From the IMG/VR virus record IMGVR_UViG_3300010366_000012, positions 1 through 64,000 of that record: a stretch of DNA of 64,000 nucleotides; one strand, written 5' to 3'. Below the pieces are notes generated by a model. The model was not told where the DNA came from and made no database searches. It saw only the letters and a list, made by a program, of their open reading frames with translations. The DNA comes from a virus. Taxonomy: Duplodnaviria; Caudoviricetes. The position numbers and the translations under genes were made by a program. Below are positions 39,120-56,947 of this stretch, one piece after another; positions within the stretch are counted from its first letter, which is position 1, and every line of letters begins with the position of its first letter.

Positions 39120-42100
39120 GTGCCGGTCCCTATCGCGGTGGTGCCCCGCCTCCCCGGGCGGCGGCTCCCGGCCGCGCCGGACGCCAGCTTCCCCGGGCTC
39201 GGCTCCGGCCCCGCGCCCTACCTGTTCGGGCAGGGCCTGGTCACTGGCACCTCCGGCAGCCGCGTCTACCCGGTCAGTGCCACCACTGACGCGGGCGACA
39301 CGCTGCTGGTGGCCACGCAGGTCAACAACACCACCTGCATCCCCTCCGCTTGCACCGACTCACAGGGCAACGTCTACACACTGGACGCGCAAGTCACCTC
39401 GCCCGGCCCGCAGATGGAGTTCTTCCGGTCAGCCGGGGCCACGGGCGGCCCTGGCGGCGGCCCCACCGTGCCGCTGACCCTCGCAGACACGATCACGATC
39501 ACCACCAACGCGGTTAGCGGCAACGTCAACCTGAACGGCACCTGCGTGCCGGGCGCTGGCCCGCTGGATGTCGCCTCGGGCATCACCTCGTCCACCAGCG
39601 CGATCAGCAACACGCACTCGATCACCCCGACCGCTGATTACGAGCTTGTCGTGGTCATGGGCGTGTCCCAGTTCGGCCCCGGCAGCATGTGGCTGGACGG
39701 GTCCAGCCCTTACACGCTGGTCTACAACGCGATCGGCGCTACCTCGGCGTTCGTGTGGTCCGCCTACGACCAGCTAGGCGCGGGCAGCGCCGGGCAAGCC
39801 AGCACCTGCGTGCAGCACGTGTCCGGCACGCCGGGCACGCTGCGGTCCTACGCCTGGGCGTTCCAGCCGCTGCCGGTGGCCCTGGCTGACGCCGCAGGAG
39901 CGGCGGACGCGCTGTCGGTGGCTGCCAGCGGCACGGGCGTGCCGTACCAGGCCGGGTCCGGGCTGACAACCGGCTCGGGCACCTCGCGGACCGCCACAGT
40001 CACCCAGGCCACCGCGGCCGGTGACACCCTGCTGGCTCTGATCACCACGCAGAACACCTCGTGCGGGATCAATGCGCTTGCCGACTCCAAGGGCAATGTC
40101 TGGATACTGGACACCCAGGCCCAGGTGACGGTCCCGATGACCACCTTCTGGCGGTGCCCCGGCGCGACCGGTGGGCCGGGCGGCGGGCAGACCGCCGCGC
40201 TCACCACATCGGACACCCTCACCGCCACCTCGGACGCGGCCACCGGCAACGTGGAGATCCAGCTGATCTGCGTGCCCGGGGCCGGGCCGCTGGACGTCAA
40301 GAACAGCACCCCGGCCAACGCCAGCTCCGCATCCCCGGCAGCCAGCATCACGCCCACCGTCAACGGCGACATCTGCATCGTGCTGCTGGCCGACGCCTTC
40401 GGCGGCGGGGCACCCACCGCGGTGTCCTCGCCGTACCAGCTGGTCAGCACCTATCAGACCGGGGTCAACCCGTTCAACAATGCCTACTGGCAGCAGCAGG
40501 CCGCGGGCTCGGGCGCGGGCACGCCGCAGGCGTTCAGCGCAACGATCGTGTCCGCCCGGTGGGCTGCGGTCCAGTACAGCTTCCAGCCGCCGCCTTCCGT
40601 CACGCCGGTCAGCGTGGCCGACGCCGGGGGCGCAGCCGACCAGCTCAGCGCTGGCGCTACCGTCCCAGTGGCAGATCCTGGGGCCGCCGCCGACCAGCAG
40701 GCCATCCAGGCTGCTGTCCCGCTGCCAGATGCGGCGGGAGCTGCGGACGCTCTTTCGGTGACCGCTGCCGCGCCGCTTGCGGACCGCGGCGCGGCTGCCG
40801 ACACCTCCGCGGTGGCTGCCAGCGCTGGACTAGCGGACAGCGCTGGCGGCACGGAGTCGGCAGCCGCGAGTGCGAGCGTACCGCTGGCCGAGGCAGGCGG
40901 GGCGGCGGATGCGCTCTCGGTGGGCGGGGCGGCGTCGATCTCGCTGGCGGATGCGGGCGGGGCTGCCGACGCGCTGGCCGTCACCGCCGCGGTGCCGCTT
41001 CCCGAGTCGGCGGCTGCAACCGAGTCCGCCGCAGTGGCGGCCAGCGTGGGGATCGCTGACGCCGCGGCGGCAACTGACCTGCCTGCGATCACAGCCGCGG
41101 TTCCCGTTTCCGAGGCTGCAGGCGCGGCCGAGACGCCAGCGATCAGCGCCACCGTACCGCTGGCCGATCAGGCCGGGGCTGCCGAGTACCAGCCGCGCGA
41201 GCTGGCCGAGGCGGCCGGGGCGGCCGACCAGCTGGCCGTCACGGCGGCAGTGCCTCTCGCAGATGCCGCTGCGGCGGCAGAGGTGGCAGCCGTCACGGCC
41301 AGCGTGGCTGTTACCGACGCTGCGGCTGCGGTGGATCAGCAGTCGGCAGCGGTCACCGTGTCGCTGCCCGAGGCTGGAGCATCAGCCGAGGCGTCGGTGG
41401 CCACAGTCACGGTACCGCTGGCTGACCAGGCCGCGGGCACCGAGTCGATGATCAGCGGGATGCCGGTCACCTACGCGGACGCGGGCGGCGCGGCTGATCA
41501 GCTGGCCGTGAGCGTGAGCGCCCCGGCCGGTGATGTCGCAGCAGCGAGCGATGTGCTAACAGCCCCCGCAGCAGTTCCGGTCACCGACCAGGGCGCGGGT
41601 GCCGACGCTATCAGCGCGGCCGGGCAAGTGCCACTGGCTGATGCTGCCGGGGCGCGGGACACGATCGCCCCGGCAGCTGCCGTCCCGTCCGCCGAGCAGG
41701 CAGGCGCATCTGATGTGCTGGGCATCGCGGCCACATCACCGCTCAGCGACCAGGCCGGTGCGGCTGATGCTATCGCCGTGGTGGCCGGGGCTCAGGTCGC
41801 CCTGCCAGATGCGGGCGGCGCGGCTGAGCAGCTGGCCGTGGCCAGCGCCAGCCAGGCCGCCGATCCCGCGGGCGCGGCAGATGTGCTGCAGGTATCCGCC
41901 GCGCTGTCGCAAAGCGACCTGGCTGGCGCTGCCGACGCTATCGCGGTCACCGTGGGGGCCGCGGTCAGCCTGGCCGACGCCGGGGCCGCGCGGGACGCGG
42001 AGGGCGTCTCCGCGCAAGTCCCGCTGGCGGACGCCAGCGCAGCGGCTGACGGGCTAACGGTCACCGCCACGGCACAGCCGGTGCTCCCCGACTCCGGCGC

Positions 42101-42764
42101 TGGCACAGAGGCGCTCAGCGCCGCGGTGAGCACGCCCGGTAAGGACGTAGCTGCAGCCAGTGACAGCCTGGCGGTAGCGCAGACCGTCAGCATGACCGAC
42201 CGGGCCGCCGCGTCCGACGCCCTTGATGTCATTATCCCGCTGATCAGCCCGGCCCCGGTGCTGATCCCCGCGCCAGCCCGGCCGCGCTGGCACCTGGTCC
42301 CGGCAGCCCAGCGGTGGCAGGTGGCCGCCACCAGGCCCCAGTGGCAGGCTGTTAGCAGCCCTCCCCGCTGGGCTGCCGCCCTAACTTCAGCGAGGTGGGT
42401 GATCATCGTGGCCGCCTTCGAGCCGATCGCCGCGGTCAGCCAGCAGAACATCAACGTCGCCTGGACGTCGGACCTGGGCGGCGATGTCATGGACCCGACT
42501 GCGCTGCCGATGCCGGTCAAGTTCGCCGTGCCCGTCAGCTCCGGCGATGAGAACCGCCCGGCCGAGCCGGTCACCTGGTTCGATGCGGTCTGGCTGAGCC
42601 CCAACGGGCGGCACGCCGGGTTCATCGCCCAGTGCCCGGTCGGCCCGACCAGCCTGGGCGGCCTGGTGCAGCTGGCCGCGGGCCAGGTCTACGACGTCTG
42701 GTCCGAGGTGGACACCGGCACCGAGACGGTCCGGGCATTTGCCGGGCAGCAGCGGGTGTACTGA
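39120..42764 (+). CDS. Tail fibre/spike-like protein with a duplicated N-terminal domain and ~30 18-aa repeats
   Basis: Two homologous ~210-aa domains (both with GDTLL, D(S)xGNV, GATGGPGGG, CVPGAGPLDV); repeats of type VPLADAAGAADALSVTAA. Confidence 0.8.
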   Translation: MPVPIAVVPRLPGRRLPAAPDASFPGLGSGPAPYLFGQGLVTGTSGSRVYPVSATTDAGDTLLVATQVNNTTCIPSACTDSQGNVYTLDAQVTSPGPQMEFFRSAGATGGPGGGPTVPLTLADTITITTNAVSGNVNLNGTCVPGAGPLDVASGITSSTSAISNTHSITPTADYELVVVMGVSQFGPGSMWLDGSSPYTLVYNAIGATSAFVWSAYDQLGAGSAGQASTCVQHVSGTPGTLRSYAWAFQPLPVALADAAGAADALSVAASGTGVPYQAGSGLTTGSGTSRTATVTQATAAGDTLLALITTQNTSCGINALADSKGNVWILDTQAQVTVPMTTFWRCPGATGGPGGGQTAALTTSDTLTATSDAATGNVEIQLICVPGAGPLDVKNSTPANASSASPAASITPTVNGDICIVLLADAFGGGAPTAVSSPYQLVSTYQTGVNPFNNAYWQQQAAGSGAGTPQAFSATIVSARWAAVQYSFQPPPSVTPVSVADAGGAADQLSAGATVPVADPGAAADQQAIQAAVPLPDAAGAADALSVTAAAPLADRGAAADTSAVAASAGLADSAGGTESAAASASVPLAEAGGAADALSVGGAASISLADAGGAADALAVTAAVPLPESAAATESAAVAASVGIADAAAATDLPAITAAVPVSEAAGAAETPAISATVPLADQAGAAEYQPRELAEAAGAADQLAVTAAVPLADAAAAAEVAAVTASVAVTDAAAAVDQQSAAVTVSLPEAGASAEASVATVTVPLADQAAGTESMISGMPVTYADAGGAADQLAVSVSAPAGDVAAASDVLTAPAAVPVTDQGAGADAISAAGQVPLADAAGARDTIAPAAAVPSAEQAGASDVLGIAATSPLSDQAGAADAIAVVAGAQVALPDAGGAAEQLAVASASQAADPAGAADVLQVSAALSQSDLAGAADAIAVTVGAAVSLADAGAARDAEGVSAQVPLADASAAADGLTVTATAQPVLPDSGAGTEALSAAVSTPGKDVAAASDSLAVAQTVSMTDRAAASDALDVIIPLISPAPVLIPAPARPRWHLVPAAQRWQVAATRPQWQAVSSPPRWAAALTSARWVIIVAAFEPIAAVSQQNINVAWTSDLGGDVMDPTALPMPVKFAVPVSSGDENRPAEPVTWFDAVWLSPNGRHAGFIAQCPVGPTSLGGLVQLAAGQVYDVWSEVDTGTETVRAFAGQQRVY

Positions 42765-43055
42765 GTGACCGATGGCCGCAATGTCAGCTATGACCGCTGG
42801 GATGCCACCAACCAGGAGATCAACCGGCGTCTGGGCGAGCTGGAGGCGTTCTCCCGGTCGCTGCGCGGCGCGGAGCAGGAGCACCGGTCGTTCGAGGACC
42901 GCCTGTTGGCGCTGGAGCGGTCCGAGCAGGAGGCTGAGGCGGGCCGCAGGTCAAGGAGGGACCGGTCGTGGGTGGTGGGCCTGACGATCATGAGCGCGAT
43001 GATCTCCCCGATCGTGGTCAGCCTGTTCATCGCCTGGCTGCACGTGCGCGGCTAG
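42765..43055 (+). CDS. Coiled-coil protein with a C-terminal transmembrane helix (lysis-region membrane protein)
   Basis: 'RLLALERSE...SWVVGLTIMSAMISPIVVSLFIAWL'. Confidence 0.7.
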   Translation: MTDGRNVSYDRWDATNQEINRRLGELEAFSRSLRGAEQEHRSFEDRLLALERSEQEAEAGRRSRRDRSWVVGLTIMSAMISPIVVSLFIAWLHVRG

Positions 43056-43294
43056 GCCCGCGGTGGGCGGTCGCCTGGCTGGCCGTGCTGCTGCTGCTGC
43101 TGTTCGGGGGGATCTGCGCCGATGGGCTGCTCACCATCGTGCTGGTGTTCGGGCAGCAGCACCAGCGCCACGAGCTGATTCAGGAGCGCAAGGAGTTCTG
43201 CCGGGCCGAGTACGAGTTGCGGGCCAAGATCACTGAGATCGAGATCGAGATCCACAGCTACATCTACGTCCCGCCGAGCCCCATCTGCCGGTAG
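42968..43294 (+). CDS. Membrane protein of the lysis region (start uncertain)
   Basis: WAVAWLAVLLLLLFGGICADGLLTIVLVFG hydrophobic segment followed by a coiled coil. Confidence 0.5.
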   Translation: MGGGPDDHERDDLPDRGQPVHRLAARARLGPRWAVAWLAVLLLLLFGGICADGLLTIVLVFGQQHQRHELIQERKEFCRAEYELRAKITEIEIEIHSYIYVPPSPICR

Positions 43295-43361
43295 CAGCCC
43301 GGCTGGCGTGCTGACATACTGAGCGCAGGCCGGTCCCCGCATGGCAGCCTGGGGGCTCGCC

Positions 43362-44180
43362 ATGGCAGGGTTCGGGATCGACTACTCCTACGGGCAGGGC
43401 CTGACCACGGCCCAGATGCACCGCGGCGGGGTCACGTTCGTCTGCCGGTACCTGGCCTACCTGCCCAACGGCAAGTGCATCAACAAGGCCGAGTTCGACA
43501 ACCTGGTGAAGGCCGGGATCAAGGTCGTGCTGGTCTGGGAGCAGGACGGCCGGGACTGCATGGGCGGCCGGGCGCGCGGTGTGGCCCACGCCCAGGAGGC
43601 TGCCAAGCAGGCGCACGCGCTGACCGGCAGCAACGAGGCTGTCATCTACTTCGCGCCGTGCGATTTTGATGCCGCGCCGGGAATGCAGCCGCTGATCAAC
43701 GGCTACCTGGACGGGGCCGCCAGCGTGATCGGGCACGGCCGGACCGGGATGTACGGCGGCTTCTGGCCGCTGAGCCGGGCACTGGACGGGCGGCACGCCG
43801 CCTACGGCTGGCAGACCTATGCCTGGAGCGGCACCAACCTGGACCGCAGGGCCAGCCTGTACCAGTACCACAACGGGGTCAGGTTCGGGCCTGCTGAGGT
43901 TGACTACGACAAGTCCTTCCACGACGATTTCGGCCAGTGGCCCCGCCCGCATGCAGCCCCGGCCCCCGCGCATGCGCCCGCTGCGCCCGCCAAGCCGCCC
44001 GCCTTCTATGAGCACACCGCCAACGGGACCGACACCTGGGCCGAGATCGCATCCGGCCGGAACATGCAGCCGGGCAGCTTCGCCGCCGAGCAGTGGGAGC
44101 TGGGCCAGGACACGGCCAACAAGCTGTTCGGCTCTTTCGTGCCGCCTGCGGGGGCGAAGTACCGGACTAAGCACCCGTGA
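43362..44180 (+). CDS. Endolysin, DUF1906 (Rv2525c-like) glycoside hydrolase with a C-terminal LysM-like segment
   Basis: GIDYS...FVCRYL...VLVWEQ...IYFAPCDFD...GMYGG...WQTYAWS...LYQY...VDYD. Confidence 0.88.
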   Translation: MAGFGIDYSYGQGLTTAQMHRGGVTFVCRYLAYLPNGKCINKAEFDNLVKAGIKVVLVWEQDGRDCMGGRARGVAHAQEAAKQAHALTGSNEAVIYFAPCDFDAAPGMQPLINGYLDGAASVIGHGRTGMYGGFWPLSRALDGRHAAYGWQTYAWSGTNLDRRASLYQYHNGVRFGPAEVDYDKSFHDDFGQWPRPHAAPAPAHAPAAPAKPPAFYEHTANGTDTWAEIASGRNMQPGSFAAEQWELGQDTANKLFGSFVPPAGAKYRTKHP

Positions 44181-44428
44181 TCTTCCGCTGGCGCAGGCCG
44201 CGTCCTCCCGACCCCAGCCGGTTTGCTGAGGACCGCATCCTGGCGGCGATGACCTACTGCCGCTCGATGCAGGGCACCGGCCACCTGAAGGTGCCGGTTG
44301 CCCAGGTGATGATCCTGCTCGACCCGCAGCACAAGATGCACCCCGAGCCCGACCCGCGGCAAGATCCGGTGACCGGCTGCCTGCCGGTGACTGCAGAGCC
44401 AGGCCCGCGCGGCACCAGCGGAAGTTAA
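44177..44428 (+). CDS. Hypothetical protein
   Basis: GTGA overlap with the endolysin stop; 83 aa. Confidence 0.55.
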   Translation: MIFRWRRPRPPDPSRFAEDRILAAMTYCRSMQGTGHLKVPVAQVMILLDPQHKMHPEPDPRQDPVTGCLPVTAEPGPRGTSGS

Positions 44429-44525
44429 AGCAGCCCGGGAGCCCCCCGCCATCCCGTGCCGCGTACCACGCGAGCCTGGCTCGGGGGCAACGTATCACCA
44501 GGCCAGCCTGTCAGTACAGCACCGG

Positions 44526-45020
44526 TTAGCCAGCCAGCCGGGCTGCTCGCAGCGGATTGCGCCGGGCATGCACCTCGGCCGCGTGAATCCGCACCGCGCG
44601 GTACAGGTCGCTCGGCCCCCAGGTGGCGTGGTAGTAGACCTTGCCCTCCGGGCTCACCCAGTAGATCCCCTTGCACCCGTTGCAGCTCTTGCACAGCGTG
44701 GCCAGGTTCGGCTTCCAGGTGAGCCCGCCCATGATCCACGGGGTGATGTGGTCGATCTGCAGGCCCGGCCACCTCGCCCGCTTGCCCCTGCCGACCTGCT
44801 TCGGCGCGAACCCGCACGCCACGCAGCGGTGCCGGTCGGCGGCCAGCACCTCGCGCCGCAGCCGCGCGCCTATCCGGTCATTCTTGCCGCGGACCCCGTG
44901 GCGCACCTTGGCACGCCAGCGCTGCCGCCAGCGCCGGGGCCACAGCAGCCCGCGCGGCCTGATCAGGCAGGCCAGCGTCACGTAGGCGGCCAGCACGGCC
45001 AGCACGGCATCCCCGCTCAC
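44526..45020 (-). CDS. HNH endonuclease with an N-terminal hydrophobic anchor
   Basis: RCVACG...LQIDHITPWIMGGLTWKPNLATLCKSCNGCKG; N-terminal AVLAVLAAYVTLACLI; coupled to traB. Confidence 0.85.
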   Translation of the reverse strand: MSGDAVLAVLAAYVTLACLIRPRGLLWPRRWRQRWRAKVRHGVRGKNDRIGARLRREVLAADRHRCVACGFAPKQVGRGKRARWPGLQIDHITPWIMGGLTWKPNLATLCKSCNGCKGIYWVSPEGKVYYHATWGPSDLYRAVRIHAAEVHARRNPLRAARLAG

Positions 45021-46903
45021 TTGACTGCCACCAGCCTGTCCCCCTCGGCGTCCTTGACCTTCCCGGCCTCGCGCAGCTGGGCCAGCTCTTCGGCCACGGT
45101 GCTCGGCGGCATGGTCCCCATCATCTTGCTGATCAGCTGGCCCATCGTGACCGGTGAGCGCAGCTTAGCCAGGATCAGCAGCTGCCGGGCGGCGGCGTCG
45201 ATCGCCGCGTCGTTCAGCTGGCGCACCTCGGCAGCCCCGGCCTCGACCGACTCCCTCACGTGCCGGGCCATCGACTCGTCCAGCGCAGTAATGTCCAGGC
45301 TCTCCGCGACGTCGTAGACGTCCGAGCTGGGGCCGAGGGTGTCGGTCCGCATGGTCACGCCCGGCCGCAGGTCCGCGCCGGAGCTGTAGCCCAGCCCCCA
45401 GGTCGGGCGGCCGGGGGCGAACACCTTGGGCAGGTCCACCGGGTTCTTCGGCAGGTTGACGTAGCTGCCGGTCACCTTGTCCCCGGTGCGGTGGCAGACC
45501 ACCGTCCCCGCGGCCAGGATCGAGCGGATCTCCTGCTGCTGCAGCTCAGCCAGGGACGGCACCTGGGCGGCCAGCCGGAACCTGATCCCGGCCTTGCGGC
45601 CGAGCTTCAGCATGTCGAGGATCAGCGCGGTCGCGCCATCGACGGCCAGCAGGATCGGGGCCTCGTCAATCGTGACTTCCACGATTGGCAGGTCGATCAT
45701 GAACGGGTTGAAGAATCCCATCCCCTGGCGTGGTTTCTTGCACTCACCGTCGCACCGGTCAAGGAACACGCCGTGGCGACGGCACCACCACACCGAGGCC
45801 ATGTAATCCGAGCGCGCGAACATCCCGGCGTGCAGGCCGCGCAGCCAGGCCAGGCAGTCATCAGCCCCGCAGGCATACGGCACCACGCCCTTCCAGGCGG
45901 GCAGCGCCTGGCCCATTTGCGGGTCGAGGATCACCGGGGCGATGTAGCCCGAGGCGATCCCGATGGCCAGCGAGAGGTTGATCGTGGACGTCTTGCCCGA
46001 GCCGTCCGCCCCCGCGATGATCGTGTGCTTGGTGCCATCCTCCGGCCCCTGCCAGAACGTCTCATGCACTGGCTTGCCGTCAGGGAACCGCCCGATCACC
46101 GCGAGCCCGGTGGCCGGGTCGATCGTCCCGCCGTCCCACAGCCGGGCCTGCTCCAGCGTGCCCTCGCGCAGGATGGTCAGCAGCCCGTGGTGCTTCTCGC
46201 CGGTCGGGTGGTCCTCGGCGTAGGCGGTGGTGACCGCCTTCTGGAACCCGGCTGCGATGGCAGTGGGCTTGGCCACGATCATGTCGATGTTGGTCTTGGC
46301 CCCGTCGCAGATGATCTCGTGCTGCACCCCGCCCTCGACGGGCAGCGGGTCACCGAGCCAGGCCAGCCAGCCCTGCGCCTCCGCGAGCGCGTCGAACTGC
46401 TCCCTGACCGAGCGTGGCGGCGGGGCCTTCTTGTCCGCGGGCCGCCAGCGGTATCGCTCCAGCCAGAACCCGTAGGGGAAGGCCCAGCCCAGCAGCCCGG
46501 CCGCGCTCCAGATGCCGAGCCCGGCGAACATCCCGGCCAGGCCCCAGGCCACCGCCCAGGCTGCCGCGGACTGGGTGTGCAGCCGCATGAACTTCGGCCA
46601 GTGCCGGGTTGCGGCCACCGTGACCGCGACCACGAGCAGCCCCAGCACCCCGGCCAGCTTCCAGCTCAGCCCGAGGGGCACCACCACGTACCCGGCCGCC
46701 TGCAGCGCCAGCCAGCCCAGCGGGGCGAGCTGGTGGCGGAACCGGAAGGCGCGCACCTCCGGGGGCGGCACCCCGGCCAGCCGGGCCTGCGCCTCGGCAA
46801 TCGCCTGCAGGTGCTTGGTGCCCCGCTTGCCGTCCACGATGAGGACCGGCCCCGGCGCGGCCTTGCCGCCCCGGGACCGGGCCTTCTGCAGCTGCCTGGC
46901 CAA
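45017..46903 (-). CDS. traB: TraB/FtsK-SpoIIIE-like conjugative dsDNA translocase
   Basis: N-terminal TM helices; Walker A IIAGADGSGKT; Walker B VTIDEAP; 'KLGRKAGIRF.LAAQ' FtsK motif; C-terminal winged helix. Confidence 0.88.
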   Translation of the reverse strand: MARQLQKARSRGGKAAPGPVLIVDGKRGTKHLQAIAEAQARLAGVPPPEVRAFRFRHQLAPLGWLALQAAGYVVVPLGLSWKLAGVLGLLVVAVTVAATRHWPKFMRLHTQSAAAWAVAWGLAGMFAGLGIWSAAGLLGWAFPYGFWLERYRWRPADKKAPPPRSVREQFDALAEAQGWLAWLGDPLPVEGGVQHEIICDGAKTNIDMIVAKPTAIAAGFQKAVTTAYAEDHPTGEKHHGLLTILREGTLEQARLWDGGTIDPATGLAVIGRFPDGKPVHETFWQGPEDGTKHTIIAGADGSGKTSTINLSLAIGIASGYIAPVILDPQMGQALPAWKGVVPYACGADDCLAWLRGLHAGMFARSDYMASVWWCRRHGVFLDRCDGECKKPRQGMGFFNPFMIDLPIVEVTIDEAPILLAVDGATALILDMLKLGRKAGIRFRLAAQVPSLAELQQQEIRSILAAGTVVCHRTGDKVTGSYVNLPKNPVDLPKVFAPGRPTWGLGYSSGADLRPGVTMRTDTLGPSSDVYDVAESLDITALDESMARHVRESVEAGAAEVRQLNDAAIDAAARQLLILAKLRSPVTMGQLISKMMGTMPPSTVAEELAQLREAGKVKDAEGDRLVAVK

Positions 46904-46906
46904 CGG

Positions 46907-47803
46907 CTAGTGGTCCGTGAACTCTGCCTTGGCAGCCCGCTTGCCGGAGGCGTCCACGCCCTCCTGCTGCGGGCCGTAGGTCTTTTTCACGTGATTGAAC
47001 ATCTGCGCGGCCATTTCCTTCAGCTTGGCCAGCTCGGACTTGGTGGTGACCACCTGGCCCTGCATGTCCCCGGCCATGCCGAGCGTCTCGGTGTCGGTGG
47101 AGTCGAGCACCGCGGCCAGCCCGTCGCAGATCGCTGAGAACGCGGCCAGCTTCTGATTTGCCTCCATCATGTCCGCGGCGTCCCGCACCTCCGCGGCGAG
47201 CTGGAGAGTGTTGTCATAGTTGGCGTCAGCCCCGGCGCTGCCGCCGTTGTCGGGTGTGGTCACTGGCTCGTCTCCTTGATCATCTTCTTCTCGGCCGTCT
47301 GTGCGGCGCTTGCGCTTGCGGTGCCCGTTCTGCCCGGGGTCGGGCGGCGGGCCATTGCCCTCGGTCGTGCCGTCTGGCAGTGGCGGGTCGCCCGCGGGCT
47401 CCTGCTGCTTCTCCCGGTACCTGCGGGCGGCCTCTTCGAGCCGCCTGCGGTAGGCCGCGATGTCCTCCCACCAGCTCGCCTGCTCTTCGGCGTGGTCGGC
47501 GCGGCGGCGCTCCCGCTCGCGCAGGTAATGCACCCGCTCGTGCTGGTGGGTGTCCCAGCCCGCCCGCAGCCCGTGCCGGGTGACCGGGAAGCCGTGGAAG
47601 ATCTCGCCCAGCCACCACATCAGGGCGGCCTGGCGCTCGGCAGCCGAGACGTGGCGCTTGCTGGGCGGTCGGCCGCCCGGCCCCTTCGCCCGCCCGCGGG
47701 CGGTGCCCTTCGCCCGGCCGACCGCGGTGCCGGAGGACTCCCGGGCGGCCATGATCGCGTAAACCACGCCGAGGGCGAGCAGCAGGCCGCCGAACGGGTC
47801 CAC
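46907..47803 (-). CDS. Membrane-anchored Spd/Tra-like protein with a helical C-terminal domain; possible internal start at 47263
   Basis: N-terminal TM; directly upstream of traB; in-frame AAGGAG-N8-GTG at 47263. Confidence 0.7.
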   Translation of the reverse strand: MDPFGGLLLALGVVYAIMAARESSGTAVGRAKGTARGRAKGPGGRPPSKRHVSAAERQAALMWWLGEIFHGFPVTRHGLRAGWDTHQHERVHYLRERERRRADHAEEQASWWEDIAAYRRRLEEAARRYREKQQEPAGDPPLPDGTTEGNGPPPDPGQNGHRKRKRRTDGREEDDQGDEPVTTPDNGGSAGADANYDNTLQLAAEVRDAADMMEANQKLAAFSAICDGLAAVLDSTDTETLGMAGDMQGQVVTTKSELAKLKEMAAQMFNHVKKTYGPQQEGVDASGKRAAKAEFTDH

Positions 47804-47804
47804 G

Positions 47805-48224
47805 TCAGCCGCCCGCGGTCTGGCTGATGCCCTGCTGGGCGGTCTGCGGCAGCTGGTTGAGCGCCGCGATCGGGGTGAGCCCGGCGCTGATCACCACGGC
47901 GAGCACGACAGCCAGCCAGAAGGTGGCCCGGCCCGCCGAGTGCTTCGGGTGCATGTCGTGCAGGAACAGGAAGATCGCCACGGCGACGATGACCAGGATG
48001 ATCGTCGCGGCGCTGTACCCGAGGATCTGCGCGCCCAGCCTGCCGACCAGCGTGATCACCCAGGCCAGGAACCGGGCCACCAGGCCCACGATCCGGCCCG
48101 AGGTGCCGATCGCCAGGATGCCCAGGAACACCGCGGCCGGGGCCGCGTTCTTGAACCGCCCCTTGAAGTGCGCGGCGAACGCGAGGGCCACCGCGATCAG
48201 GCCCCAGTCCAGCTGCGTGATCAT
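47805..48224 (-). CDS. Polytopic membrane protein (Spd-like)
   Basis: 139 aa with about four hydrophobic segments, inside the traB operon. Confidence 0.75.
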   Translation of the reverse strand: MITQLDWGLIAVALAFAAHFKGRFKNAAPAAVFLGILAIGTSGRIVGLVARFLAWVITLVGRLGAQILGYSAATIILVIVAVAIFLFLHDMHPKHSAGRATFWLAVVLAVVISAGLTPIAALNQLPQTAQQGISQTAGG

Positions 48225-48227
48225 GGC

Positions 48228-48635
48228 TCAGCCCCAGACCCACATGATGGCCGCCGTGGCGGCGAGCACGAGCAGGAACCCGCACCGCTTGGCGAAGCTG
48301 TCCCCGCTCCAGATCCACAGGAAGGCCAGCGGCACCTCGACAAAGGCGTGCCAGGCCCCGTAGAGCAGCCGCGGGTAGCGAGCCCACCAGCGGCGGTAGT
48401 AGTCGGCCTGCTGCTTGTGCAGCGCCCAGTAGCCCATGATCGACAGCGGCTGCGCGTACATGGGCGAGGCCCCGGCCAGCAGGCTGACCGCGGGGATGGT
48501 CAGCCGGTTCATCTTCATCGGCCGGTCGGCATCCTCGCGCGTGCGCGCAGGTGCGCGTGCCTGCGCGTTGGCCCCGGGCTTCTCGTCCTCGGTGGGCAGC
48601 CGCGGGAGCAGGCTGGTCACGTTGTCGGCGGTCAT
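48228..48635 (-). CDS. Membrane protein of the transfer operon
   Basis: C-terminal TM GFLLVLAATAAIMWVWG. Confidence 0.7.
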   Translation of the reverse strand: MTADNVTSLLPRLPTEDEKPGANAQARAPARTREDADRPMKMNRLTIPAVSLLAGASPMYAQPLSIMGYWALHKQQADYYRRWWARYPRLLYGAWHAFVEVPLAFLWIWSGDSFAKRCGFLLVLAATAAIMWVWG

Positions 48636-48862
48636 GCGGCCTCCAGCTTCATTGCCTCAGCGAGCAGCAGCTCGGCCAGGCGGTGGCACTCGTCACCGCG
48701 GGCCGGGTGCCGGTAGGCGGCAGCGCGCAGCCGGTCGAAGCTGACCGCGAGCTGCCGCTCACCCGTTCGTGCCTGGCCGAGCCGCTCGGCCTGCGCGGCC
48801 TTGCGCCGGTCGCAGCGCCGTGGCTTCAGCGTCCCGTCAGGCAAGATGCGGTGCCCGGCCAT
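48632..48862 (-). CDS. Hypothetical protein of the transfer operon
   Basis: ATG 48862 coupled by TGATG; MAGHRILPDG...EAMKLEAA. Confidence 0.6.
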   Translation of the reverse strand: MAGHRILPDGTLKPRRCDRRKAAQAERLGQARTGERQLAVSFDRLRAAAYRHPARGDECHRLAELLLAEAMKLEAA

Positions 48863-49041
48863 CAGGACCGCACCGCCCCGGCCACGTTCGCTGCTGCCAC
48901 CGGGATCGCCATAGCCGCCCATATCACCAGCAGCAGCACCGGGAAGATAGACACCAGCAGGAGAGTGACCGCCGCGGCGCAGGTAGCCCAGTAGGCCCTC
49001 GGGTTCGTGCAATGCCAGCAGTGCGGGTTGTATCCGGTCAC
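48862..49041 (-). CDS. Small membrane protein (59 aa)
   Basis: Read by hand: MTGYNPHCWHCTNPRAYWATCAAAVTLLLVSIFPVLLLVIWAAMAIPV...; coupled at both ends. Confidence 0.6.
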   Translation of the reverse strand: MTGYNPHCWHCTNPRAYWATCAAAVTLLLVSIFPVLLLVIWAAMAIPVAAANVAGAVRS

Positions 49042-49226
49042 AGCCGCACCTCCCTGCGCCCGAGGCGGATGCGGTGCTCGCGCCGCCTGCCCTTGTCGTA
49101 GCCCCGGCCGCGGAGGTAGTCCTCGGCCAGCTCGCGCAGCTCGTCGTCCTCGGCGTCCTGATCCACGGTGAGCGTGGCCACGTGGCGGCCACGGTCCGTC
49201 TCGATATAGGCGTCACGGTCTGCCAT
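49038..49226 (-). CDS. Hypothetical protein, first gene of the transfer operon
   Basis: GGGAGG RBS before ATG 49226. Confidence 0.65.
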   Translation of the reverse strand: MADRDAYIETDRGRHVATLTVDQDAEDDELRELAEDYLRGRGYDKGRRREHRIRLGRREVRL

Positions 49227-49307
49227 CGTCGCCTCCCTCGCTGTCACCCGGTACCCGGCAGTGTACGCTCTGGGTGGTACAAGTGCCTACAGCCGGGAGG
49301 CATTCCA

Positions 49308-50066
49308 ATGGCTGACACATTGTGGGAGCGGGTCGCCCGCGCACTGGAGCTGGCGATCACGTCGGGCGAGCAGGGCTACAAGCCGGGCGACACGCTGCCG
49401 TCTGAGAACGAGCTGATCACCCAGTACGGCTACTCGCGCAACACGATCCGCAAGGCGCTGGACAGCCTGGCTGACGCCGGGCTGATCACCAGCTCCCCGG
49501 GCGCGCGGCGGCGGGTGACCGCCCGGCTGCTGCTCAACGTCCACGTCACCCGGACCGCCGACCGGGCGGTGGGCGGCCAGCTGGCCACCCGGGGCGCGGA
49601 CAGCTGGCGGGCGGACATCGAGCACCTCGGGCACCGGGCGGACGAGCAGGGGCCGACCGTGCGGGAGGGCCGGGCGCACGAGGTGGCCGGGCGGCTGGGC
49701 GCGGCGGGCGATCTGGTGTACGTGCGCGAGCTGATCCGGCTGGTGGACAACCGCCCGCACAACATCGCCCGCTGGTACTTCCCCGGGACCATCGCCCGGG
49801 GCACCAAGCTGGCCCACCCCCGGGACATCCCCGGGGGCTCGATCCCCTACCTGTCGGGCATCGGCGCGCGGCCGGAGAGCTACACGGTGGAGATCGAGAG
49901 CCGGATGCCGACCCGGGCCGAGGCCGGGCGGCTGGTCATCCCGTCCGGCGTGCCGCTGCTGGTTGAGTACCGCACCGGGTTCGGCGCGGCCGGGGTGCCG
50001 GTGTTCGTGGAAGTCTCGTTCTGGCCGTCCGACCGGGCGCGGCTGATCATGGAGCTGGAGTCATGA
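49308..50066 (+). CDS. GntR (HutC/UTRA) family regulator, KorSA/TraR-like
   Basis: LPSENEL...YGYSRNTIRKAL..L...GLI wHTH plus UTRA-like C-domain; divergent from the traB operon. Confidence 0.92.
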   Translation: MADTLWERVARALELAITSGEQGYKPGDTLPSENELITQYGYSRNTIRKALDSLADAGLITSSPGARRRVTARLLLNVHVTRTADRAVGGQLATRGADSWRADIEHLGHRADEQGPTVREGRAHEVAGRLGAAGDLVYVRELIRLVDNRPHNIARWYFPGTIARGTKLAHPRDIPGGSIPYLSGIGARPESYTVEIESRMPTRAEAGRLVIPSGVPLLVEYRTGFGAAGVPVFVEVSFWPSDRARLIMELES

Positions 50067-50284
50067 TCCCCGGGGACCGGGTGCGGACGCCGCGCGGGGA
50101 CGGGCGCGTGGTCATGGACCGGCAGAGCTTCGACATGGACATCTGCGATGCGGCCTGGCACCACGCTGCGGGCGGCCAGCCGCCGCGGTGGATCACCGTG
50201 GCGCTCGACCACGACGGCGGGGAAATGACGTTCCTGCCGACCGAGGTGACCGCCCTGGCGATGGCCGGGTCATGCGACCCATAA
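50063..50284 (+). CDS. Hypothetical small beta (SH3-like) protein
   Basis: ATGA overlap; PGDRVRTPRGDGRVV. Confidence 0.6.
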   Translation: MIPGDRVRTPRGDGRVVMDRQSFDMDICDAAWHHAAGGQPPRWITVALDHDGGEMTFLPTEVTALAMAGSCDP

Positions 50285-50331
50285 ACTCGCTGTCAGTACA
50301 TGGCGAGGCGGCTTGGCAAGGCTGGCGCGGA

Positions 50332-50523
50332 TCATGTCGAGCCCGGCTCTTCCTCGGGAGGGTCGGGCTCGGGCATCCCCAGCCACTGGCGCATCGCCTG
50401 CCGGAATGCGGCGGTATTAGACAAGCCCAGTTCACGCGCTCGCCGCTTGAACGGCACCCACAAGGTGTCATCAATCCGACCGGCGCTGCGGTTCGGCGTC
50501 AACTTCGCTGTCCTTCCGGTCAC
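50332..50523 (-). CDS. Ribbon-helix-helix DNA-binding protein
   Basis: TPNRSAGRIDDTLWVPFKRRARELGLSNTAAFRQAMRQWL; start is GTG 50523 or TTG 50502; flanked by TGTMAGTACA sites. Confidence 0.7.
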   Translation of the reverse strand: MTGRTAKLTPNRSAGRIDDTLWVPFKRRARELGLSNTAAFRQAMRQWLGMPEPDPPEEEPGST

Positions 50524-50555
50524 AGCGGGGGTGTACTTACAATCGGGAGCAGGCG

Positions 50556-51236
50556 ATGACAAGCACAGACACAGACACAGACAGCGAGCTGCCCGGGGTC
50601 CAGCTGGCAGACCGGGTGGTGGGAGCGGTCTGCGTGGCTATGACCGTGGCCGCGCTGGTCCTTAGTTACAGCAACCTGGTGGACTTCGCCACCAGGCACG
50701 GGCAGGGAATGCCGAAGGCGCTGCTCTTTCCGCTGATCATCGACTCGTTCGTGGTGTTCGGTGAGGTGCGGCTCTATGCTGCCACGGCACGTGATGAGGG
50801 TACTTGGATCAAGGCCCGGATGTGGCTGATCACGATCTTCGGGCTGGCCGCCTCGATGGCGGGCAACTGGCTGCGCTTCGGCGCGGTGCCGGTGACATGG
50901 AACCTGGCCGCGGCGGCAGCTCCGCTCGCCGCGGCGATCGGCCTGGGCGTCGGGCTCGGGCTGGTGAAGCTGCATGCTCGGCCGCAACTGAGTGACGCGC
51001 AGGATACCCCGCTGGAGCCGGAGCCGGAGCCCCGGCCGGTGAAGGCTCGTCCTGCCGCAGCTTCCCGCCGAGCCCGGCGCTCAGCTGGGCGGCCGGACCC
51101 GGAGCTGGTCGCGCTGCTGCGCGCCGACCGCGACGACGGCAAGAGCCTGGCGTGGCGTCAGGTGGTCGAGCGGCACGGCACCACGCAGCACAAGGCGCGC
51201 ACCGCCCTGGCCGCGCTGGGCAACGGGGCCGGATAG
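50556..51236 (+). CDS. DUF2637 (SpdA-like) membrane protein with a C-terminal HTH-like segment
   Basis: ALVLSYSNL...LFPLIID...AASMAGN...AAAAP pattern, four TM segments; family common in AICEs and actinomycete plasmids. Confidence 0.82.
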   Translation: MTSTDTDTDSELPGVQLADRVVGAVCVAMTVAALVLSYSNLVDFATRHGQGMPKALLFPLIIDSFVVFGEVRLYAATARDEGTWIKARMWLITIFGLAASMAGNWLRFGAVPVTWNLAAAAAPLAAAIGLGVGLGLVKLHARPQLSDAQDTPLEPEPEPRPVKARPAAASRRARRSAGRPDPELVALLRADRDDGKSLAWRQVVERHGTTQHKARTALAALGNGAG

Positions 51237-51240
51237 CGGA

Positions 51241-51270
51241 GAGCCCGGCCCCCGCGGGGGAGCCGGGCTC
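51241..51270. terminator. Hairpin between convergent genes
   Basis: GAGCCCGGC / GCCGGGCTC stem. Confidence 0.65.
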
Positions 51271-51288
51271 GCCTGGCTGACGGTTCAG

Positions 51289-51651
51289 TCAGTACGTCTG
51301 GATGTTGTGGATCGTGCCAGACGTGTCTGAGTAGCCGTAGCCGCCGTGCTGGTTGCTGCGCGCACCCGGCTCGTACACCACGGGGTTGCCGTGCTTGACC
51401 CCGGGCACGGTGTCACGGTCGGGGTTGCCGTCCTGGTCGATGAAGTCAGCGAACGGCCAGACCCAGAACCGGTTGCACGGGTTGAAATTGATGTGCGCCG
51501 TGGTCGAGGTCCGGTTGTGCGTCACGCTGACATCCGGGTGGTTGGCGCAGCGCGCCGCGCCGGGAGCTGCCGAAGCGGGAGCCGCCACGGCCATCAGGCC
51601 GCCCGAGGCCATCAGGGCCAGGGCGGCGATAGTGGTTCTGATCTTCATCAT
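51289..51651 (-). CDS. Small secreted protein
   Basis: Signal peptide MKIRTTIAALALMASGGLMAVAAPASA; two Cys; beta-rich. Confidence 0.75.
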   Translation of the reverse strand: MMKIRTTIAALALMASGGLMAVAAPASAAPGAARCANHPDVSVTHNRTSTTAHINFNPCNRFWVWPFADFIDQDGNPDRDTVPGVKHGNPVVYEPGARSNQHGGYGYSDTSGTIHNIQTY

Positions 51652-51713
51652 GAGATCCTTTCCTTGTCACCCCGGGACGTCGGTCGGCCCGGGTGGCCTT
51701 GGAGGATGACCGA

Positions 51714-51754
51714 GCAGGCCCCTGCCCCCGTCGCGGGGGCCTGCCCGGGGCCTG
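51714..51754 (-). terminator. GC-rich hairpin after the clamp-like gene
   Basis: GCAGGCCCC / GGGGCCTGC inverted repeat. Confidence 0.5.
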
Positions 51755-52633
51755 TCAGTCGCTGGACGGCCGGACCGGGACGATCAGGCAGCGGTAGTGC
51801 TCCCCGATCTCGGCCAGCACCGGCTTGCCCGCGCGGGTCAGCCGCAGCCGGACCGGCATGGACTTCTCGCCCGTCTCGACCTTGGCGAGGATGGCCAGCC
51901 ACTTCTGCTCGATGTGGTAGAAGCGCTCGATCTCGCCATCGTCGGACAGCGCCTGATCCATCAGCCGGTCCACGGGCGGGTAGTCGTTGCCCACGATCGC
52001 CTGCGGGCTGTAGCTGGTGTCCGGGCCGTCGCTCTGCACCAGGACGAGCGACACGCGCTCGGCCCCGGGGTCGCGGCTGATCACCACGTGCGGGCGCAGC
52101 AGCGGCTCGGCGTACTTGGTGCCGTCGCTGGTGGCCAGCTTGAAGATCTTGACCGCCTTGGCCAGATCCTTGACGCCGACCACGACGTCCAGCTCCGTCT
52201 CTGGCACCGGCCGCGGCAGGCCGTGCTCGATCTCGTGCAGCCTGGCGATGTCGTCGGCGTCATCCCCGAACACATAGCCGGGCGGGAACCTGTCCTTGTG
52301 ATCCTCGTGGTCGGACAGGTGATTCTTCAGCTGGGCCAGCCGGTCGGCCTCCTGCTCGTCCCCGTAGCCGTGGCCGCGGTAGATGAAGTGATCGTGCGGC
52401 AGGGTGCCCTTGACCGCGAGCAGGTCTGCGAGCGGGATGCGCTCCTGGCTGGCCACGTAGCGGTTGGTCGCCTCGAACCGCAGCTCCCCCTTGTGATTGG
52501 GATCGGGGTAGATGTGGATCGCGGTGAGCAGCGGCAGCGTGTCATCGGTGGACGCGGACAGCGTGGCGTTGGCCACGGCCCGCATGAAGCCAGCCGCGGA
52601 CACGGTGACGGTGCTGGGGGTGTTGTCTGACAT
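51755..52633 (-). CDS. DNA polymerase III beta-clamp-like protein
   Basis: 'RAVANATLSASTDDTLPLLTAIHI...LRFEATNRY' and 'YPPVDRLM' resemble DnaN domains; carries an insertion. Confidence 0.65.
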   Translation of the reverse strand: MSDNTPSTVTVSAAGFMRAVANATLSASTDDTLPLLTAIHIYPDPNHKGELRFEATNRYVASQERIPLADLLAVKGTLPHDHFIYRGHGYGDEQEADRLAQLKNHLSDHEDHKDRFPPGYVFGDDADDIARLHEIEHGLPRPVPETELDVVVGVKDLAKAVKIFKLATSDGTKYAEPLLRPHVVISRDPGAERVSLVLVQSDGPDTSYSPQAIVGNDYPPVDRLMDQALSDDGEIERFYHIEQKWLAILAKVETGEKSMPVRLRLTRAGKPVLAEIGEHYRCLIVPVRPSSD

Positions 52634-52661
52634 TGCCTTCTCCTTGTCGTGATGCCAGATG

Positions 52662-52910
52662 CTACGGCATGAGCCCGTTGGCGTAGCCGTAGGCGATGAA
52701 GCCGCGGTAGGCCCGCAGCAGATCTGCGGGAACCCTGGACTCGTCTAGCCACTCGTTCCCGTCCTCGTCCGGCCCGGACACCGCGCCCAGCTCCCTGAGC
52801 GCGGTGTCGAACCGCACGGCGTCTTTGTCGAACACTTCCTGGCTCGCGGTGGGCTTGCTGACGGCCTGCGGTATCCAGGTGCCGTGCTGGTCGAAGAACC
52901 CGTTGCTCAT
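52662..52910 (-). CDS. Hypothetical protein
   Basis: ATGA coupling; 82 aa. Confidence 0.65.
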   Translation of the reverse strand: MSNGFFDQHGTWIPQAVSKPTASQEVFDKDAVRFDTALRELGAVSGPDEDGNEWLDESRVPADLLRAYRGFIAYGYANGLMP

Positions 52911-53305
52911 GACTGCACCAGGCCCTTCCGCACGAGCGCCTTGATGATCGCCTTGCGCGCCTCGCCCTCTTCGACGCCGTACCGGAGCAGCTCCGGCAGG
53001 GTGCTGAAGGCCACGGCGGACGAGCCGCACTGGCAGCCGTGCCCGGTGTAGTCCTCGGACTCAGCCAGCAGGCCGAACCGGCCATCGGCCAGCCGGACGA
53101 CCGTGTAGCTCTCGCTGTCGGACGAGGGCTTGCCCTCGGCCAGGTCCAGCTCCTGCCACGGCTCGCTGTAGTCACCGCTCCACACCGCGGCGATCACCCC
53201 GGCCACCTGGGCCAGGTGCCACTTCGGGTCGTGCAGGCAGCAGCTCTCCAGCATGTCGAACTGGCTGCGGAGCCCGGCCAGCGGGTCAACGATCTGCGCG
53301 TTCAT
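52907..53305 (-). CDS. Hypothetical protein
   Basis: GGGAGG RBS; C-terminal SEDYTGHGCQC motif. Confidence 0.7.
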   Translation of the reverse strand: MNAQIVDPLAGLRSQFDMLESCCLHDPKWHLAQVAGVIAAVWSGDYSEPWQELDLAEGKPSSDSESYTVVRLADGRFGLLAESEDYTGHGCQCGSSAVAFSTLPELLRYGVEEGEARKAIIKALVRKGLVQS

Positions 53306-53316
53306 GTCATCCTCCC

Positions 53317-53850
53317 TTACGCCCACACGACCATCGAGTCAGAAGCGACCGCGGAAGTCGCCAGGTTTTCCAGCTGGGCCAGCCGGTCACCGAAGTAGCC
53401 CGGAGCCCGGCCGCACTCCACGACCATCGCGGAGCCGGTGCCGGGGCCGCCGCTCAGCACGTGCGCCGGGGTGCCCTCGTCGCCGCGGGCGTCGAGGAAG
53501 GCGCGGGCCGTCAGCACCCGGCCGAGGAAGTCCTCGCCGGGGCACTGGCCCATCAGCTCACCGAAGTCCGGCAGGTCCAGCACCGGCAGCGTGCCCACCG
53601 GCTCGCCGTCCGGGCGCAGCCCGAGCAGCTCCAGCAGCGCGGCTGCGTTGGCGTTGGAGACGTTCACCTCGTCGGCGCGGCAGCCGCAGGCCGCCTCGTC
53701 GGCGTCGTTGTGCTCGCAGAGCCCGAAGTACAGCGAGGCGTCCTCGCAGCAGCTCTCCGGTCGCCTGTGCGAGTGGTCCGGCCCGCAGAACAGCACGGTG
53801 TGCCCTGGCGTCTCTTCGATGTACCGCCCGGCGCTGAAGGTGACTGACAT
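53317..53850 (-). CDS. Hypothetical protein
   Basis: Extended SD AAGGAGCAGGCA and a promoter upstream; 177 aa. Confidence 0.75.
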   Translation of the reverse strand: MSVTFSAGRYIEETPGHTVLFCGPDHSHRRPESCCEDASLYFGLCEHNDADEAACGCRADEVNVSNANAAALLELLGLRPDGEPVGTLPVLDLPDFGELMGQCPGEDFLGRVLTARAFLDARGDEGTPAHVLSGGPGTGSAMVVECGRAPGYFGDRLAQLENLATSAVASDSMVVWA

Positions 53851-53887
53851 TGCCTGCTCCTTGCCCTTGCCCTTGCCTTACGGCTTC

Positions 53888-53920
53888 AGCCTACCCGGCT
53901 CCGGTCATTCTGTCAACAGT
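53888..53920 (-). promoter_or_regulatory. SigA/HrdB-type promoter within an ACTGTTGACAGAA motif
   Basis: TTGACA (53916-53911), 17 nt, TAGGCT (53893-53888). Confidence 0.8.
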
Positions 53921-53945
53921 GACCGGGCCGGGTTCCTGAATTGAT

Positions 53946-54332
53946 TTACCAGCCCCACGGGATGTCGTCGGGGTAGGGCACGTCCCCGAGGGCTTCCTTC
54001 AGCTTGGTGACCAGCTGGCAAGATTCGGAGTCCTTCCATCCGGGGTGCTCACACGACTGGTAGCTGTAGCAGCCGAGAGTCTTGGCCAGCGCGCCGCCGT
54101 CGAGCAGCTCGGTCGGCACCCAGGTGTAGGTAGTGACGTCGCTGTCGCGGAAGCCGACCGGGCCAGGCCGCCCGCCGTCCTTGTCGTGCGGGTAGCGGTA
54201 GGCCACGCTCGCCAGGCATTCCGCCCAGAGCATCCGGCCCAGCTCGTCCGGGCTCTTGCTGCTCAGCTCCCGGGCCAGGATGGCCGTGACCATCATGTCG
54301 ATGTGCTGCTTGCTGACGATCCATGCGCTCAT
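53946..54332 (-). CDS. Hypothetical phage protein
   Basis: MSAWIVSKQHID...SVAYRY...CYSYQSCEHPGW; extended SD. Confidence 0.75.
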   Translation of the reverse strand: MSAWIVSKQHIDMMVTAILARELSSKSPDELGRMLWAECLASVAYRYPHDKDGGRPGPVGFRDSDVTTYTWVPTELLDGGALAKTLGCYSYQSCEHPGWKDSESCQLVTKLKEALGDVPYPDDIPWGW

Positions 54333-54400
54333 GTCTTGCCTTCTCCTTGACGTGTCGCGCGGGGGCCGGTTGCCCGGCCCCCGCTGGGGGTCCGCGGTGC

Positions 54401-54766
54401 TTATGCCTCGCGGTAGATGACGGTCGGGTTGCCGTTGGCGTCCAGCTTGTTCGAGTCCACCTCGTAGATGTAGGCGGCATCGCCCGCGTCCCGGGCCATG
54501 ATCCCGACGCTGAGGAAGTCGAGCGGCTTGCCGTTGCTGGCGTACTCGCCCGCCTGCCAGACCACGAACTTCGCGGCCAGGTAGCTCGGGTCGTTGAAAC
54601 GGGTGTCGGACGTCTGCTCCTTCACCGCGGCGAAGAACCGCTCCAGGCTGGCCGGGACGCCATGCTGGCTGTCGGGGTAGCCGTCGCTGTGCCGGTAGAC
54701 GTTCGCCTCGGTGACGAACACGCCATCGCGCCGGTCCCCGAAGTGGATGTTGCACCTGGTGCTCAT
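54401..54766 (-). CDS. Hypothetical phage protein
   Basis: MSTR...VYRHSDGYP motif, common in phage early regions. Confidence 0.8.
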   Translation of the reverse strand: MSTRCNIHFGDRRDGVFVTEANVYRHSDGYPDSQHGVPASLERFFAAVKEQTSDTRFNDPSYLAAKFVVWQAGEYASNGKPLDFLSVGIMARDAGDAAYIYEVDSNKLDANGNPTVIYREA

Positions 54767-54801
54767 GTCTGCTCCTTGTCCTTGTCGGTGCCTTCAGCTC
54801 C

Positions 54802-54834
54802 AGCTTAATCGCCGGATGCCGTTCTGTCAACAGT
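54802..54834 (-). promoter_or_regulatory. SigA/HrdB-type promoter within an ACTGTTGACAGAA motif
   Basis: TTGACA (54830-54825), 17 nt, TAAGCT (54807-54802). Confidence 0.8.
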
Positions 54835-56211: not shown

Positions 56212-56213
56212 GG

Positions 56214-56450: not shown

Positions 56451-56452
56451 GG

Positions 56453-56878: not shown

Positions 56879-56903
56879 TGCCTTCTCCTTGCCCTTGCTT
56901 GCC

Positions 56904-56942: not shown

Positions 56943-56947
56943 CCGGT

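Follow-up and report, generated by a model that had tools for sequence, protein, structure and literature searches.

Could a tailed phage of filamentous soil actinomycetes spread its DNA from one hyphal cell to the next without packaging it? Filamentous actinomycetes are compartmented, hence a virus or plasmid gains from inter-compartment DNA movement, which plasmids accomplish with TraB and Spd proteins. The question is raised by positions 44526-51236 of a 64,000-nucleotide window (the whole stretch of DNA analysed here), which comprises the first 64 kb of the 75,011-bp IMG/VR record IMGVR_UViG_3300010366_000012, classed as 'linear' with a CheckV completeness of 96%, ~3 kb (~4%) of the genome being unseen. 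The locus holds a leftward operon of small and membrane proteins that contains an FtsK-like ATPase (the pump) and ends with an HNH nuclease, a divergent GntR regulator and a rightward DUF2637 gene, and an earlier note, made from the sequence alone, took it for a complete-looking Streptomyces-type conjugation module inside a phage-plasmid. By analogy with the plasmid systems, and with slightly better than even confidence, we read the module as a Tra-type double-stranded DNA (dsDNA) pump with membrane partners, which would spread phage DNA between hyphal cells without virions. A conjugation-type identity is supported by the family of the pump, the architecture of the module and its context.

The pump gene (45017..46903, minus strand) encodes a 628-aa protein that is predicted from its fold, motifs and family matches to be a Tra/FtsK-like dsDNA translocase. 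Its Walker A motif (GADGSGKT, residues 298-305) and the DE pair of Walker B (D413 and E414) are invariant across 32 homologues, and hydropathy peaks at residues 59-131 mark an N-terminal membrane anchor. The AlphaFold (AF2) model of the protein (pLDDT 86.5) shows four helices at residues 55-150, then an alpha/beta motor and a long helix, and closes with a winged helix, which is modelled at 587-626 as a helix-turn-helix plus beta-hairpin (helices 587-593 and 600-612, strands 616-619 and 623-626); weak profile matches to winged-helix proteins cover residues 531-617. Against the PDB, the pump profile finds the FtsK motor (E 5.5e-7), then EccC and the clostridial conjugation coupling protein TcpA, and a Foldseek search with the model likewise places FtsK motors on top (E 6.5e-14, target TM 0.61-0.65, ~420-440 columns), followed by TcpA and EccC/EssC.

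The nearest relatives in sequence are found on plasmids. A tblastn search with the pump gave no match in 50,697 phage records, while it matched 42-67 actinomycete plasmids at ~25-35% identity; at E <= 0.01, 65 of the 67 records were actinomycete plasmids, including some with genes annotated 'transfer protein'. Direct BLAST matches include a 654-aa protein of the plasmid-phage PhiNon1 (E 3e-38), a protein of the Streptomyces violaceoruber plasmid pSV2 (E 1.6e-14) and a Kitasatospora 'transfer protein' (E 8.9e-12). The matched pSV2 gene encodes 768 aa and lies beside a gene for 'conjugal transfer protein TraB', downstream of a DUF2637 gene. At the profile level, hhalign relates the pump family to pZL12.71c, the Tra-like protein of the plasmid-phage pZL12 (94.6%, E 6.8e-8, 378 columns including the membrane region), and to Tra of pIJ101 (89.5%, E 2e-6, 246 columns). 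Used as a query, pIJ101 Tra matches chromosomal-type FtsK genes widely, whereas the 628-aa pump matches none. By these comparisons, the pump falls within the Tra radiation of actinomycete plasmids and not with chromosomal FtsK, in agreement with the earlier note, which had read it as a TraB/FtsK ATPase. The kinship to plasmid Tra is distant, and the pump belongs to no named subfamily. As a separate observation, the Streptosporangium plasmid NZ_CP109431.1 (L020, 178913-185105) carries both a 674-aa homologue of the pump and an 870-aa 'DNA translocase FtsK', ~1.5 kb apart with one gene between them; since both occur on one plasmid, two FtsK-like lineages coexist and are not interchangeable copies.

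Several points weigh against reading the module as a transfer system. The FtsK fold by itself cannot tell transfer from segregation or other DNA pumping. The Pfam model FtsK_SpoIIIE scores 18.7 bits on the pump, under its cut-off of 24, a failure that is uninformative because pZL12.71c and the pSV2 protein also fall under this cut-off. Neither near the pump gene nor elsewhere did searches for clustered k-mers and Markov over-representation find a clt-like repeat cluster or any over-represented clustered 8-mer; near the 3' end of the pump gene only CGGCCAGCA recurs, three times at 44840-45005, and this word has 17 copies genome-wide. What had been called a complete-looking module has its operon, pump, GntR regulator and membrane partners in place, while the clt repeat cluster was not found. 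Finally, the accessory proteins have no detectable similarity to SpdB of pIJ101 or to pZL12.72c and pZL12.73c, so that homology to SpdB could not be established for the Spd proteins assumed in the earlier note; Spd proteins are too diverse for assignment by sequence (PMC4447253).

The genes that accompany the pump form a tightly coupled unit. Genes were called by third-position GC (GC3), and the leftward genes have GC3 values of 0.90-0.99 and are spaced by 1-3 nt or overlap by 4 nt. The description of a leftward, coupled operon of small and membrane proteins leading to an FtsK-like ATPase is thus borne out by GC3, spacing, hydropathy, the Walker motifs and the modelled winged helix. The first open reading frame (ORF) of the operon (49041..49226, minus strand) has a GGAGG ribosome-binding site and encodes a 62-aa acidic protein without a family match, the N-terminus of which (MADRDAYIETD.GRHVAT) is kept in the related locus L006, as read from upstream sequences. 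Its stop is overlapped by the start of a 59-aa single-pass membrane ORF (48862..49041, minus strand; hydropathy peak 2.83), which is 43% identical over 39 aa to the ORF at the same position in a second related locus, L007. A 135-aa protein with C-terminal hydrophobic helices follows (48228..48635, minus strand; GC3 0.95), and homologues at the same position are found in L006, L007, L008, L014 and L023. The next two genes encode further partners, the families of both being retained together with the pump in 13 IMG/VR contigs of 26-115 kb.

The first of these two, a 139-aa protein (47805..48224, minus strand), is a four-helix membrane protein by hydropathy and has an H..HP motif that is invariant in an alignment of 13 related loci; it gives a weak match to FtsK_4TM (E 7.6e-4, under the cut-off), and its profile weakly matches the positional counterpart in PhiNon1, a 133-aa protein. 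The second, a 298-aa membrane/coiled-coil protein (46907..47803, minus strand), was described from its AF2 model and an alignment of 16 sequences; an N-terminal membrane helix leads into a long coiled coil, and a disordered linker connects this to a helical bundle at the C-terminus, the tail of which is conserved. A fold search with this model returned nothing at E <= 0.001, EsxA/EsxB-like hairpins appearing only at E 2.6-4.5. The tail (HGG..EA...P....FY) is common to a 142-aa protein encoded directly upstream of the Kitasatospora plasmid transfer protein (probability 70.6%, E 3.9e-5), and it weakly matches the 'TraB' of pSV2 and a 396-aa protein of PhiNon1. The last gene of the operon (44526..45020, minus strand) overlaps the translocase gene by 4 nt and encodes a 164-aa HNH endonuclease, which passes the Pfam HNH cut-off with 32 bits and begins with a hydrophobic helix (residues 2-20, hydropathy 1.95); it stands at the same position in L006, L007 and L023, and is missing in more distant relatives that retain the pump and its partners. 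Among the reference collections, Protein Atlas has only unnamed clusters for the 298-aa and 139-aa proteins, NCBIfam no matching Tra or Spd model for the module proteins, and PHROGs nothing for the pump or its partners, while blastn of 44001-52000 gave no phage match and, on plasmids, only chance matches of 130 bp.

Rightward of the operon lies a divergent control region of 78 bp (49227..49304), followed by the gene of a GntR/HutC-type regulator with a winged helix-turn-helix and a UTRA domain (49305..50066, plus strand; Pfam GntR 55.5 bits, UTRA 48.2 bits). A divergent GntR gene had been noted earlier and is confirmed as GntR/UTRA, with the correction that the span given to it began too early. 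The regulator is 27% identical over its full length to KorA of pIJ101 (E 2e-6) and is similar to pZL12.80 (E 1.4e-6). The control region holds the GTAC-core motifs AGTGTACGC and GGTACAAGT, which are common to L006 and L023 and have GTATATAC / TATACCGGTATA as their positional counterparts in L007; these motifs are a candidate GntR operator, and a repeat scan of the region found no strong palindrome. Elsewhere in the window, TGTTGACAGA, a word with a -35-like TTGACA core, occurs in nine minus-strand copies at 53909-63962, almost nowhere else and never in the module. The copies are probably repeated early promoters of the phage, and their absence from the module fits a separate, GntR-dependent control.

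The GntR stop is coupled to a 73-aa ORF (50063..50284, plus strand), presumably the one that had been taken for a ribbon-helix-helix gene; searches of Pfam, PHROGs, NCBIfam and PADLOC gave no family for it, and BLAST finds no conservation of it in relatives. The 226-aa DUF2637 membrane protein (50556..51236, plus strand), in contrast, was identified correctly (Pfam DUF2637 44.7 bits, above the cut-off), and its basic tail is probably a helix-turn-helix. DUF2637 genes precede Tra-like genes on pSV2, PhiNon1 and other plasmids, and are also present in L006 and L023. Taken as a whole, 44526-51236 is a real regulon, predicted to be under GntR control, and is integral to the genome of a tailed actinophage.

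Whether the module belongs to the phage at all is answered by its setting. The rightward arm of the record encodes a large terminase (Pfam Terminase_6N/6C), portal (9183-10751), scaffold, major head protein (E 3.7e-71), head-tail adaptor, tail terminator, major-tail-like protein, tape measure (29214-32786), minor tail proteins and, directly upstream of the module, the endolysin (43341-44180), hence a complete virion, packaging and lysis gene set is present, identified from portal to endolysin, and the module does directly follow the lysis genes, as previously described. The leftward early arm (51.3-72 kb) encodes a family A DNA polymerase (PolA), a primase/DUF5906 NTPase, an SNF2 helicase, a PD-(D/E)XK exonuclease and RusA, so that the replication genes of the record are phage-type, and the module sits between the lysis cassette and this early arm. 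That it is instead a separate integrated element, like an actinomycete integrative and conjugative element, or an assembly chimera, could be argued from the strand switches that bound it and from the frequency of its homologues on plasmids. However, GC is ~70% throughout the window without a step at 44526-51236, GC and GC3 of the module equal those of its flanks, and neither att-like repeats nor a Phage_integrase or Resolvase match were found in the record.

Synteny in related loci bears on the same matter. In L006, the order DUF2637 / GntR / 135 / 139 / 298 / pump / HNH is kept, and past the HNH gene stands a homologue of the 83-aa ORF that here follows the endolysin. L023, an 83.7-kb contig from a metagenome-assembled genome (MAG) of Streptosporangiaceae, the family that is the best lead to the host, likewise has the full order, next to endolysin, holin-like and tail genes, and in L007, where no DUF2637 homologue was detected, the module adjoins endolysin and minor tail genes homologous to the phage's own. 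Position and order between lysis and early genes are thus the same in these three loci, at identities of 45-56% for the pump and 33-65% for the module proteins. The module core is present in 13 IMG/VR viral contigs, while a scan of genome contigs found only three loci, namely two Streptosporangiaceae MAGs and one that is probably mis-binned. In addition, the stretch occurs in two soil metagenome runs of different studies, with no RNA dataset listed for it, and the independent contig from the second study (20 kb, at an even depth of 62) spans 41000-55000 over both junctions with 34 base differences. Single-nucleotide differences from this soil variant are synonymous in all three cases in the pump gene and in all four in the HNH and pump genes together. 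The possibility of a chimera or separate element, which the earlier note had held open, is contradicted by the synteny and by the junction-spanning contig and is very improbable, and the data support the module as an integral, vertically kept part of the phage. The same comparison of soil variants shows, in the early arm, a 292-aa gene (window 51755-52633) that takes 10 of the 31 listed single-base differences, five of them non-synonymous, and just upstream of it, at 52851-52905, a 53-bp segment that is replaced by 2 nt, while neighbouring genes differ almost only synonymously.

How such a phage lives is a further question, as it had been proposed to be a phage-plasmid that spreads both as virions and by hyphal conjugation. 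Under that proposal, an extrachromosomal plasmid prophage would conjugate from lysogens in the manner of pZL12, with GntR acting as a Kor-type repressor; the layout of pZL12 is the same (GntR gene.80 divergent from operon.79c-.71c, beside virion genes), PhiNon1, a carrier of a pump homologue, replicates in circular form with a copy number of 17, and no integrase was found in the record. The last point had been made for the window and extends to the whole 75-kb record, six-frame searches of which found no tyrosine or serine recombinase, but equally no ParA (AAA_31) and no ParB (ParB_N), and no ORF of the record matched a plasmid replication-initiator family. The replication genes found instead are of the lytic-phage type (PolA, primase/helicase, SNF2, exonuclease, RusA), whereas ParAB and an integrase are encoded by pZL12, and a tRNA gene serves as the integration site of PhiNon1. 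Tyrosine integrases occur in six of 10 related viral records with the pump, ParA in none; the pump family thus resides mostly in temperate phages. The closest relatives are too incomplete for a call of lifestyle, and one is classed as a provirus. The gene content does not support a plasmid character of the phage, the phage-plasmid inference is weak, and a true phage-plasmid of the pZL12 kind is unlikely.

The ends of the record bear on the same question. It begins within a DUF5906-type NTPase gene (window 1-804), with the Walker A motif GPTASGKS inside the first 13 codons, and fusing the contig ends restores no start codon and no complete first gene, so that the assembly is not a closed circle; the ParA, Rep or integrase genes that might have lain beyond the window are likewise not found in the 75-kb record. 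Two non-coding stretches stand out near these ends. After the NTPase gene, a low-GC intergenic stretch at window 808-1027 contains TGCGAAGAT and AAACTGCGCA three times each, both near-exclusive to it, and this iteron-like arrangement is a candidate origin or regulatory site. Beyond the window, at genome positions 72053-75011 (L001:10052-13011), a non-coding tract of ~3 kb repeats strongly every 5 nt, reading GCCNN on the plus strand and hence (GGY-NN)n on the minus strand (autocorrelation 0.51 at lag 5; C 48%). GGY/NN vrRNAs have been described in a preprint (bioRxiv 10.64898/2026.04.26.720920). The tract was also considered as a giant clt, and this idea was rejected because 10 related records that hold the pump are without it.

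From the observed gene anatomy, fold, family relations, conservation and phage linkage, we infer the substrate, the direction and the timing of pumping, and any transfer at all, by analogy with the Tra/Spd systems of Streptomyces. Once repression by GntR is lifted, the pump, a hexameric-type FtsK/Tra translocase with small integral-membrane, coiled-coil and membrane-tethered HNH partners, would assemble in the membrane where hyphae touch or at septal cross-walls. A site on the phage genome would be recognised by the C-terminal winged helix of the pump, and phage DNA in double-stranded form, which the HNH protein may cut or linearise, would then be driven by ATP hydrolysis into the adjoining compartment or hypha. 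In a mycelial host, the phage could in this way spread without virions.

A pump of this fold could also act at septa within one mycelium. Like SpoIIIE or SffA/SmeA of Streptomyces, it would then carry phage genomes through sporulation or vegetative septa as these close, so that spores or daughter compartments receive them, with which the FtsK-like fold and domain order and the small membrane proteins upstream of the pump are consistent. In PhiNon1 and actinomycete plasmids (L003, L020, L002 and L021), DUF2637-Tra-like modules are preceded, at a distance of a few genes, by developmental regulator genes of the SsgA or WhiB family, which hints at a link of such pumps to septation or sporulation. 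No SsgA or WhiB gene, however, adjoins the module in this phage, the nearest sequence relatives are proteins of plasmid transfer loci and not chromosomal FtsK or SffA, and the difference between segregation and intramycelial 'spreading' is partly semantic; we consider a dedicated segregation pump rather improbable.

The HNH protein raises a different prospect, namely an ordinary part in the infection cycle unrelated to spread, such as superinfection exclusion, help in genome entry or handling of host DNA together with the nuclease. The coupling of a membrane-tethered HNH to the pump in the close clade would fit this, and FtsK/HerA ATPases, which appear among the weaker fold matches, also occur in defence systems. 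On the other hand, distant relatives without HNH keep the pump and its partners, homologues stand in transfer loci of plasmids that have no virions, and PADLOC assigns no defence-system membership, its matches being P-loop noise only; such a role is improbable.

If, as favoured here, the module moves phage DNA between hyphal cells, it need not do so from a prophage. The phage is possibly virulent because no integrase or partition genes were found, and it is conceivable, if doubtful, that the pump, its partners and the membrane-tethered HNH push replicating genomes over cross-walls or into touching hyphae during infection, as a virion-independent spread of a lytic virus. This lineage, the 13 related viral contigs and PhiNon1 indicate that tailed phages of actinomycetes have long kept such a pump, and if the transfer reading is true, virions would not be the only means by which phages spread, plaques form and genes flow in mycelial bacteria.

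Among known systems, chromosomal FtsK and SpoIIIE provide the best structural match to the pump, with four helices at the N-terminus, an alpha/beta motor and a winged helix at the end in common. Unlike them, the pump lacks a long linker, is phage-borne and is predicted to be repressor-controlled, and by tblastn it matches no megaplasmid FtsK gene, whereas pIJ101 Tra does so readily. The Tra/TraB-Spd-Kor regions of Streptomyces plasmids (pIJ101, pSVH1, pSV2, SCP2) resemble the module in having one FtsK-like pump that is membrane-anchored and carries a winged helix at its C-terminus (PMC4447253), in their coupled small membrane genes and in their GntR repressor, which is divergent in pIJ101, pSVH1 and pZL12. 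The module differs in that the pump stands towards the end of the operon and not first, in that no similarity to SpdB and no clt were found, and in being carried by a phage in which no plasmid replicon was found.

Closer in setting are two plasmid-phages. PhiNon1 ('plasmid III' of Nonomuraea gerenzanensis, NZ_LT559120.1) is a published plasmid-phage with a copy number of 17 that also integrates (PMC5431353), and combines a complete virion set with the order DUF2637 - small proteins - 396 aa - 654-aa pump beside a lysin; its pump is 30% identical to the 628-aa pump. It differs in its integration at tRNA-Val, its size of 59 kb, its other structural genes and its SsgA gene, and its accessory proteins are only marginally similar to those found here. 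The precedent cited in the earlier note, pZL12 (phage ZL12, GQ919031), is apt, being an experimentally studied plasmid-phage of the same layout, the conjugal transfer of which requires the major tra gene and two neighbouring genes (PMC3583192). Like the present phage, it has a tailed-phage genome with a leftward multi-gene operon (pZL12.71c-.79c) ending in a membrane-anchored FtsK-like Tra, and a divergent GntR gene (pZL12.80) followed by further rightward genes, directly beside virion genes. The pumps have no similarity at the BLAST level (E 0.28), the accessory genes are unrelated, and pZL12, at 90 kb, has the ParAB and integrase that were not found here, whereas the present phage brings a PolA replication set of its own and its operon includes a membrane HNH. 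The concept is hence not new, since pZL12 was described in 2010; new here are a genome with its own DNA polymerase and no integrase found, a distinct Tra lineage, and a nuclease coupled to the pump.

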